A DNA stretch of 64,000 bases, from assembly GCF_013315695.1 (NCBI RefSeq), contig NZ_CP054353.1. The stretch is one strand, 5' to 3'. This DNA comes from Escherichia coli (GTDB lineage: Bacteria > Pseudomonadota > Gammaproteobacteria > Enterobacterales > Enterobacteriaceae). Both the position numbers and the translations under genes were made by a program. This document shows positions 44,151 to 49,331 of this stretch, piece by piece. Position 1 is the first letter of the stretch, and each line of letters begins with the position of its first letter. The notes below the pieces were generated by a model, which made no database searches, had not been told where the DNA came from, and worked only from the letters and a program-made list of their open reading frames with translations.

Positions 44151-44324
44151 GACAAATGAAGTTTTAGTAAATTCTTTAAAATCAACCACTAAAATAATTA
44201 ACATCAAAAATAACGCGACTTTTATCACTTTTTAGTAAAGTTGCACTGGACAAAGCGTACCACAATTGGTGTACTGGTAACCGACACAGCATTTGTGTCT
44301 ATTTTTCATGTAAAGGTAATTTTG

Positions 44325-44534
44325 ATGTCTAAGATTAAAGGTAACGTTAAGTGGTTTAATGAGTCCAAAGGATTCGGTTTCATTACTCCGGAAGACGGCA
44401 GCAAAGACGTGTTCGTACACTTCTCTGCAATCCAGACTAATGGTTTTAAAACTCTTGCTGAAGGTCAGCGCGTAGAGTTCGAAATCACTAACGGTGCCAA
44501 AGGCCCTTCTGCTGCAAACGTAATCGCTCTGTAA
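44325..44534 (+). CDS. cspE: Cold-shock-family protein CspE
   Basis: [69 protein letters not shown], 69 aa. Confidence 0.95.
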
Positions 44535-44553
44535 GATACGTCAGCAAGAATTC

Positions 44554-44582
44554 AAAACCCGCTTAATCAGCGGGTTTTTTTT
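44554..44582. terminator. Rho-independent terminator between convergent cspE and crcB, likely bidirectional
   Basis: aaaacccgc-ttaatca-gcgggtttt followed by a T-run of 8 or more; A-run on the 5' side. Confidence 0.8.
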
Positions 44583-44587
44583 GGTCT

Positions 44588-44971
44588 TTAGTGTGCGGTT
44601 GAGGCGGAAAACAGCCAGAAAGCCAGTGCGGTCATGGCAAAAGACCCCAAAAGGTTGACGAAAACGTTCAGTAACGCCCAGCCAAAGCGGCCCTCTTGTA
44701 ACAAAAACACCACTTCTGCCGAAAATGTTGAGAAGGTTGTTAGACCGCCACAAAATCCGGTGGTGATTAATACTTTCCACACTGGATCAATGTTCGTCAT
44801 CCTGCTAAACCAGGCGAATCCCATTCCTATGATGAATGCCCCAATCAGGTTTGCAGCCAGCGTCCCCAACGGAATCGCTTGATGTAGCGGGTTAAATCGC
44901 ATACTTAACAGCCATCTCGCCACGCTTCCCGTACCACCGCCAATAAAAACTGCTAAAAGAAGTTGTAACAC
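44588..44971 (-). CDS. crcB: Fluoride ion channel CrcB/FluC
   Basis: 127-aa membrane [52 protein letters not shown]…. Confidence 0.92.
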
Positions 44972-45063
44972 TGCAAAATCCTGCTATTTGATTTGTATGA
45001 GTGATAAGTGTAACGCCGAATAATCGCCGTTGGCGAATTTTACGACTCTGACAGGAGGTGGCA

Positions 45064-45852
45064 ATGCTGGTTGCTGCAGGACAGTTTGCTGTGACATCTG
45101 TGTGGGAAAAGAACGCTGAGATTTGTGCCTCGTTGATGGCGCAGGCGGCGGAAAACGACGTTTCGCTGTTTGTCCTGCCGGAAGCATTGTTGGCGCGAGA
45201 TGATCATGATGCAGATCTATCGGTTAAATCAGCACAGCTGCTGGAAGGCGAATTCCTCGGACGTTTACGGCGAGAAAGTAAACGTAACATGATGACGACA
45301 ATTCTGACGATTCATGTTCCTTCAACGCCGGGGCGCGCATGGAATATGCTGGTGGCGCTACAGGCAGGAAACATCGTCGCCCGTTATGCCAAACTGCATC
45401 TCTATGATGCATTTGCCATTCAGGAATCACGCCATGTTGATGCTGGTAATGAAATAGCTCCATTACTGGAGGTGGAAGGGATGAAGGTCGGTCTGATGAC
45501 CTGTTATGACTTACGCTTTCCAGAGCTGGCGCTGGCACAGGCATTACAGGGAGCTGAAATCCTGGTACTTCCTGCCGCCTGGGTTCGCGGGCCGCTCAAA
45601 GAGCATCACTGGTCAACGTTGCTTGCCGCTCGTGCGCTGGATACCACCTGTTATATGGTGGCGGCGGGGGAGTGCGGGAACAAAAATATCGGGCAAAGCC
45701 GGATTATAGATCCCTTTGGCGTCACCATTGCGGCAGCGTCAGAAATGCCTTCACTCATTATGGCGGAAGTGACGCCCGAACGTGTGCGTCAGGTGCGCGC
45801 GCAACTGCCCGTCTTAAACAACCGTCGCTTTGCGCCGCCGCAATTATTATGA
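45064..45852 (+). CDS. ybeM: CN-hydrolase (nitrilase superfamily) amidase YbeM, intact reading frame
   Basis: Uninterrupted ORF ([10 protein letters not shown]…; an in-frame GTG lies 2 codons upstream at 45058) with RBS aggagg at 45053-45058. Confidence 0.85.
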
Positions 45853-45980
45853 TGTTTTTTTACTCGGCGCTTGATTCACCTTGTTACAGATTGCTATTGT
45901 GTGCGCGCGTCGAATGACCGTTAATATTCTCTGGTTTTTAAGGCGCGTTCTGTTGCCGGTTATATGTCAAGAAGGTATCT

Positions 45981-46184
45981 ATGGGTGAGATTAGTATTAC
46001 CAAACTGCTGGTAGTTGCGGCGCTGGTCGTTCTGCTGTTTGGGACTAAGAAGTTACGTACGCTGGGCGGAGACCTTGGAGCGGCCATTAAAGGGTTCAAG
46101 AAGGCGATGAATGATGACGATGCTGCGGCGAAAAAAGGCGCAGACGTTGATCTTCAGGCTGAAAAGCTCTCTCATAAAGAGTGA
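45981..46184 (+). CDS. tatE: Twin-arginine translocase subunit TatE
   Basis: [67 protein letters not shown], 67 aa. Confidence 0.95.
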
Positions 46185-46224
46185 CGTGGCGAGCAGGACG
46201 CTCCCTCAATATCTTGTTCGATAC

Positions 46225-46256
46225 AAAAAACCCGCTTCAAAAAGCGGGTTTTTTAT
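46225..46256. terminator. Rho-independent terminator between convergent tatE and lipA
   Basis: aaaacccgctt…aagcgggtttt followed by a T-run, with an A-run on the 5' side (bidirectional). Confidence 0.8.
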
Positions 46257-46284
46257 CAGACAGATGTAAGTAATTATTACAGGA

Positions 46285-47250
46285 TTACTTAACTTCCATC
46301 CCTTTCGCCTGCAAATCGGCGTGGTAAGACGAGCGGACAAACGGACCGCATGCAGCATGGGTAAAGCCCATCGCCAGCGCTTCGGCTTTCATTTCGTCGA
46401 ACTCATCCGGGCTAACGTAACGTTGAACCGGCAGGTGATGGCGGCTTGGCTGCAAATATTGCCCCAGCGTTAACATCGTCACACCATGACGGCGCAGGTC
46501 GCGCATTACCTCAATAATTTCTTCATTGGTTTCACCCAGACCCACCATCAGACCAGACTTGGTCGGGATTTCCGGATGCGCTTCTTTAAAGCGTTCCAGC
46601 AGCTTCAGCGACCAGTTGTAATCTGCACCAGGCCGTACCTGACGGTAAATACGCGGTACGTTTTCCAGGTTATGGTTGAACACATCTGGTGGTGTGGCGG
46701 TCAGAATATCCAGAGCACGATCCATACGACCGCGGAAATCCGGCACCAGAGTTTCAATTTTGATTTGCGGGCTTTTTTCCCGAATGGCAGTAATGCAATC
46801 CGCAAAGTGTTGGGCACCGCCATCGCGCAGGTCATCACGGTCAACGGAGGTGATAACCACATAACGCAGCGCCATATCGGCAATGGTCTGCGCCAGTTTC
46901 ACTGGTTCATTGGCATCCGGAGCTACCGGGCGACCGTGGGCAACGTCACAGAACGGACAACGGCGGGTACAAATAGCGCCGAGGATCATAAACGTTGCTG
47001 TGCCGTGGTTGAAGCATTCCGCCAGGTTAGGGCAGGAGGCTTCCTCGCAGACAGAATGCAGGCCATTTTTGCGCATTGCGGCTTTGATGCCCTGGATACG
47101 TGTAGAGTCCGCTGGAAGCTTGATTTTCATCCATTCCGGCTTGCGCAGCAGGGCTTCGCGCTCTGTTGCCACGTTTTTAACCGGGATAAGGGCCATCTTA
47201 TCGGCATCGCGGTATTTAACACCGCGTTCCATCACAATGGGTTTACTCAT
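46285..47250 (-). CDS. lipA: Lipoyl synthase LipA (radical SAM)
   Basis: 321-aa [29 protein letters not shown]…; CxxxCxxC radical-SAM cysteines present. Confidence 0.95.
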
Positions 47251-48633: not shown

Positions 48634-48909
48634 GTGGCTTCTGTTTCTATCAGCTGTCCCTCCTGTTCAGCTACTGACGGGGTGGTGCGTAACGGCAAAA
48701 GCACCGCCGGACATCAGCGCTATCTCTGCTCTCACTGCCGTAAAACATGGCAACTGCAGTTCACTTACACCGCTTCTCAACCCGGTACGCACCAGAAAAT
48801 CATTGATATGGCCATGAATGGCGTTGGATGCCGGGCAACAGCCCGCATTATGGGCGTTGGCCTCAACACGATTTTACGTCACTTAAAAAACTCAGGCCGC
48901 AGTCGGTAA
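48634..48909 (+). CDS. insA: IS1 InsA (transposition repressor / N-terminal part of the InsAB' transposase)
   Basis: [94 protein letters not shown] start. Confidence 0.95.
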
Positions 48910-49331
48910 CCTCGCGCATACAGCCGGGCAGTGACGTCATCGTCTGCGCGGAAATGGACGAACAGTGGGGCTATGTCGGGGCTAAATCGCGCCAGCGCTG
49001 GCTGTTTTACGCGTATGACAGGCTCCGGAAGACGGTTGTTGCGCACGTATTCGGTGAACGCACTATGGCGACGCTGGGGCGTCTTATGAGCCTGCTGTCA
49101 CCCTTTGACGTGGTGATATGGATGACGGATGGCTGGCCGCTGTATGAATCCCGCCTGAAGGGAAAGCTGCACGTAATCAGCAAGCGATATACGCAGCGAA
49201 TTGAGCGGCATAACCTGAATCTGAGGCAGCACCTGGCACGGCTGGGACGGAAGTCGCTGTCGTTCTCAAAATCGGTGGAGCTGCATGACAAAGTCATCGG
49301 GCATTATCTGAACATAAAACACTATCAATAA
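48828..49331 (+). CDS. insB: IS1 InsB frame; the functional transposase InsAB' is made by a -1 ribosomal frameshift from insA
   Basis: 167-aa [67 protein letters not shown]…. Confidence 0.9.

Follow-up and report, generated by a model that had tools for sequence, protein, structure and literature searches.

Positions 45064-45852 of the DNA analysed here, a window of 64,000 nucleotides from Escherichia coli, most probably (with a probability of about 0.85) hold an intact, orthologous copy of ybeM, predicted to encode a 262-aa cytoplasmic amidase of the Nit1 branch of the nitrilase superfamily, for which the name deaminated glutathione amidase is used at NCBI. Public records already contain this gene under its name, as an intact gene in most E. 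coli and as a pseudogene in K-12.

In a program-made list of open reading frames, the locus appears as a single uninterrupted ORF on the plus strand (45058..45852), which counts 264 aa when read from a GTG codon. A Shine-Dalgarno motif, AGGAGG, can be read off the sequence at 45053-45058, and is followed by a 5-nt spacer and an ATG codon at 45064. Since this motif extends into the GTG codon at 45058, the ATG is taken to be the true start of ybeM. Translation from this codon gives a CDS of 789 bp, with 262 aa and a TGA stop codon at 45850-45852. An earlier note on this DNA had described an intact ORF of about 262 aa with a good ribosome binding site, and this description stands, while the start that it placed at 45058 moves by 6 nt to 45064. 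The same CDS is annotated in RefSeq as WP_001330455.1 (789 bp) in both records that were checked, MS 21-1 and MSB1_4I. The window is 100% identical to MS 21-1 over 941 bp, and the predicted protein shows no difference from the E. coli deaminated glutathione amidase YbeM of that accession. The gene and the residues discussed below are located as follows, with 1ems denoting the closest solved structure.

45053..45058, plus strand: Shine-Dalgarno motif AGGAGG, separated from the ATG by 5 nt, as seen in the sequence itself
45064..45852, plus strand: ybeM CDS, predicted deaminated glutathione amidase (Nit1-like CN-hydrolase), 262 codons and TGA, assigned from the ORF, PF00795, NF033621 and WP_001330455.1 on identical DNA
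45181..45183, plus strand: Glu40, codon GAA, predicted catalytic general base, aligned with Glu54 of 1ems and invariant in 13 sequences
45262..45264, plus strand: Arg67, codon CGT, whose middle base G45263 is deleted in MG1655 and in other frameshifted alleles, from the alignment with NC_000913.3; Arg (CGG) in the outgroups
45391..45393, plus strand: Lys110, codon AAA, predicted catalytic lysine, aligned with Lys127 of 1ems and invariant in 13 sequences
45424..45426, plus strand: Glu121, codon GAA, second conserved glutamate (Q-E-S motif), aligned with Glu143 of 1ems and invariant
45502..45504, plus strand: Cys147, codon TGT, predicted catalytic nucleophile, aligned with Cys169 of 1ems and invariant in 13 sequences

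Antisense and out-of-frame ORFs within ybeM, such as the one at 45224-45544 on the minus strand, were taken as mechanical by-products. A scan of 44850-46250 for consensus promoters and terminators returned no more sites than were found in shuffled sequences, and no plus-strand promoter for ybeM. The Rfam scan of 43500-46500 revealed no RNA family in or adjoining ybeM, nor a fluoride riboswitch in the 92 bp that separate crcB from ybeM. The sole match above the gathering score in that interval was a cspA-type thermoregulator, which spans the cspE transcript region (44134-44582) and scores 136 bits, compared to a gathering score of 78.

The assignment of YbeM to the nitrilase superfamily is based on several profile searches. 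The Pfam CN_hydrolase profile PF00795 matches residues 3-245 of the protein over profile positions 2-255 of 256, with 142 bits (cut-off 23.2) and an E-value of 2.8e-41, and the ORF is therefore far beyond chance. In NCBIfam, the model for deaminated glutathione amidase, NF033621 (de_GSH_amidase), matches residues 3-261 over profile positions 2-260 of 260, and the score of 450.8 bits passes the curated cut-off of 355. YbeM does not reach the cut-off of the Yersinia-type deaminated glutathione amidase NF043013 (83.6 bits vs 500), which is a related yet distinct family. It also fails the YafV/Nit2-type amidohydrolase model NF007757 (60.6 bits vs 249) and is therefore not a YafV-type member, while several other amidase models match only weakly.

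Among the solved structures, the closest is the Nit domain of Caenorhabditis elegans NitFhit (PDB 1ems, 107 bits, E-value 9.4e-30), followed by Nit2 of Saccharomyces cerevisiae (4h5u, 97 bits, E-value 9e-27) and the Kluyveromyces lactis structure 7elf (91 bits). The Nit2-type omega-amidases rank below these, with 82 bits for mouse Nit2 (2w1v) and 75 bits for yeast Nit3 (1f89). The match of YbeM to solved structures is full length. These scores suggest that YbeM is nearer to the Nit1 branch than to the Nit2 omega-amidases, by a modest margin (107/97 vs 82/75 bits). YbeM has the CN-hydrolase fold family in common with the eukaryotic Nit1 branch (1ems; 4h5u/4hgd), and the Glu-Lys-Cys triad and the second glutamate align. 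However, the sequence relationship to this branch is distant, and YbeM lacks the Fhit fusion that is present in NitFhit. YbeM is also the shorter protein, with 262 aa, and has none of the insertions found in yeast Nit2, with which its alignment falls into two pieces. With the Nit2/YafV omega-amidases (2w1v, 1f89 and NF007757) it shares the superfamily branch and the catalytic chemistry, but at lower scores.

The Glu-Lys-Cys triad, the defining feature of the nitrilase superfamily, in which an acyl-enzyme is formed through the cysteine (PMC9913352), is present in the window allele. In the alignment with NitFhit, Glu40 corresponds to Glu54, Lys110 to Lys127, Cys147 to Cys169 and Glu121 to Glu143. 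These four residues are invariant across 13 aligned orthologues that are 72-99% identical. The alignment includes the window and covers sequences from E. coli, Escherichia fergusonii, Citrobacter, Leclercia, Salmonella, Kosakonia, Enterobacter, Scandinavium and Cronobacter. In total, 99 columns are invariant across the 13 sequences, and all of these are intact in the window allele. Compared to the BL21 allele (WP_000959109.1) and to frame-corrected K-12-type alleles, the window allele carries two substitutions, R124H and A230S. Position 124 varies freely among the aligned orthologues, and at position 230, Ala is found in 10 of the 12 remaining aligned sequences and Gln or Asp in the others. 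Nothing in these comparisons suggests that the two substitutions inactivate the enzyme.

The proposed function is the repair of a damaged metabolite. Now and then, transaminases would remove the amino group from the gamma-glutamyl moiety of glutathione, resulting in deaminated glutathione (dGSH), and YbeM would hydrolyze the amide bond of dGSH to 2-oxoglutarate and cysteinylglycine (EC 3.5.1.128). In this reaction, Cys147 would attack the amide carbonyl to form a thioacyl-enzyme, with Glu40 as the general base, Lys110 stabilizing the tetrahedral intermediate or oxyanion and Glu121 assisting, after which water would free the acid from the acyl-enzyme. Nit1 has been described to hydrolyze deaminated glutathione that arises from side activities of transaminases, by which 2-oxoglutarate, cysteine and glycine are recovered (PMC7041631). 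A literature search on dGSH together with Yersinia or E. coli returned nothing on bacterial enzymes. In strain CFT073, an NsrR ChIP peak is located close to ybeM, and NO stress lowers the expression of the gene (PMC5320621), which shows that an intact ybeM is transcribed in one natural strain at least. YbeM is presumably expressed and active, with dGSH as its likely physiological substrate.

In K-12 MG1655 (NC_000913.3), ybeM is b4581, a gene of 788 bp between crcB and tatE that is flagged as a pseudogene, as the earlier note had stated. Pairwise alignment with the K-12 region identified a single indel: the G at window position 45263 is missing in K-12 (GGACGTTTACGG vs GGAC-TTTACGG). The window retains this base and is free of the K-12 frameshift. 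G45263 is the second position of the codon for Arg67. After this 1-bp deletion, the K-12 frame reads nine codons wrongly before it meets a stop, so that the product would end at 75 residues, ahead of Lys110 and Cys147. The deletion site is not part of a homopolymer, as the base lies in a C-G-T context. Besides the indel, the window and K-12 differ by 14 substitutions within the ybeM CDS, while the locus and its flanks, with crcB upstream and tatE downstream, are common to both. The K-12 allele also carries V33A and V37A, and all 13 aligned sequences have Val at position 37. Between K-12 and the naturally frameshifted strain 26561, ybeM differs at only two bases, each of which changes an amino acid once the frame is corrected (V33A and V37A). 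These changes fit further decay after the frameshift, although the numbers are tiny.

The intact allele has been proposed to be the ancestral one, and the outgroups bear this out. E. fergusonii and Salmonella enterica both contain an intact 262-aa ybeM in the gene order crcB-ybeM-tatE-lipA, with Arg (CGG) at codon 67. The order crcB/ybeM/tatE is also common to K-12, MS 21-1 and MSB1_4I, and full-length orthologues of 262 aa are found in Citrobacter, Leclercia, Kosakonia, Enterobacter and Cronobacter. The dN/dS ratio (Nei-Gojobori) is 0.067 in comparison with E. fergusonii and 0.123 with Salmonella; these values are rough, as dS reaches saturation with both outgroups, at about 1.55, and could not be corrected for one pair, but they remain clearly well below 1. 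Together, the intact syntenic genes in the outgroups and the low dN/dS indicate that the intact allele represents the ancestral state and that purifying selection has maintained it.

The divergence of ybeM between E. coli and E. fergusonii is unusually high, with 76% identity at the nucleotide level and 82% at the amino acid level, compared to 88% nucleotide identity for the neighboring lipA. E. coli YbeM is also nearer to its Citrobacter amalonaticus orthologue (84% amino acid identity) than to that of E. fergusonii (82%). Fast evolution or past recombination could explain this divergence.

The distribution of both alleles was determined among complete E. coli genomes using short probes. Exact matches to a 60-mer spanning the K-12 deletion occur in 860 of 5,423 genomes (approximately 16%, or about one in six), and exact matches to the window 61-mer containing the G occur in 3,593 of 5,424; the approximately 970 genomes that match neither probe exactly carry a substitution nearby. 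The carriers of the deletion extend beyond K-12 derivatives and include strains from humans, chicken, dog, cucumber, river water and bovine mastitis. One of these, mastitis strain 26561, has ybeM annotated as 'frameshifted' in RefSeq. In BL21, ybeM is intact (WP_000959109.1). An intact ybeM is therefore the norm in E. coli, and there is nothing special about the window allele. The frameshift seen in K-12 is a polymorphism of natural lineages and not a laboratory artefact. Large protein clusters of 205-215 aa (343-945 members), which are 98-99% identical to the C-terminal approximately 80% of YbeM, have also been observed; in frameshifted alleles, the downstream fragment has probably been called as a gene of its own.

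These counts bear on two other explanations of the locus. Single-base indels are common as assembly artefacts, and the difference between the window and K-12 could in principle mean that one of the two records was sequenced or assembled incorrectly. However, the deleted G lies outside any homopolymer, the exact deletion recurs in 860 independent complete genomes with the intact form in 3,593, and ybeM of MG1655 serves as a known pseudogene integration site in the literature (PMC4788846), so that this explanation is effectively refuted. The frame could also be open without yielding an active protein in this strain, either because R124H or A230S inactivates the enzyme or because ybeM is not expressed, which would make the window allele a cryptic pseudogene in the making. 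A frameshift in approximately 16% of the complete genomes means that the enzyme is dispensable, the window allele does carry both substitutions, and the scan for consensus promoters found none for ybeM. On the other hand, the catalytic residues and all invariant columns are intact, the two substituted positions tolerate other residues (Gln or Asp at 230 in other genera), the ribosome binding site is strong, and the gene is transcribed and NO-responsive in CFT073, which makes such a silent or inactive state very improbable.

A somewhat larger, though still small, chance is given to an active CN-hydrolase with a different substrate, such as an omega-amidase with 2-oxoglutaramate or 2-oxosuccinamate as its substrate, or an enzyme for another small amide. 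The function of YbeM has been assigned through homology only, and the Nit2-type omega-amidases are significant matches as well, next to the weak ones to several other amidase models. Still, the curated cut-off is exceeded only for the dGSH amidase model, and structures of the Nit1 branch outrank those of the Nit2 branch, which argues against a different substrate.

Over positions 33000-57000 (24 kb), the window shows 100% identity to E. coli MSB1_4I. This strain comes from a human rectal swab taken in Australia, and its ybeM is annotated as intact in RefSeq. The earlier note had argued from ybeM, a pagP frameshift, an IS1 element and the absence of ybdR that the sequence is not that of MG1655. 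This identity and the 14 substitutions and one indel in the ybeM CDS confirm the conclusion, and each of the accompanying loci is borne out by the MSB1_4I record, where pagP is marked 'frameshifted', IS1A is annotated between ybeF and lipB, and ybdR is missing between uspG and yldA, the place where K-12 has it.

Some details of these neighboring loci were also observed. In pagP (43590-44151), a 1-bp insertion relative to K-12 is located near 43730 (GAACATATATGA vs GAACAT-TATGA), and the longest ORF left is one of 149 aa that starts at a TTG codon; pagP is intact in MS 21-1. According to the MSB1_4I record, the transposase gene of the IS1A family, with its programmed frameshift, lies at about 48634-49331 of the window, and the element is absent from the ybeF-lipB site in both K-12 and MS 21-1. 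ybdR is b0608 in K-12, and in MSB1_4I the spacer between uspG and yldA, which corresponds to the upstream part of the window, measures only 123 bp.

Beyond correct annotation, the ybeM finding is of little weight. The intact ybeM, together with the pagP frameshift, IS1A and the missing ybdR, serves as a strain marker that identifies the DNA as that of a natural MSB1_4I-type isolate and not of MG1655. A tentative and rather doubtful idea takes the frameshift as a loss of function that is old as well as natural, in which case intact and broken alleles could mark lineages that handle damaged glutathione differently, perhaps with a fitness or stress phenotype. For the putative metabolite-repair enzyme encoded by ybeM, K-12 is a poor model.
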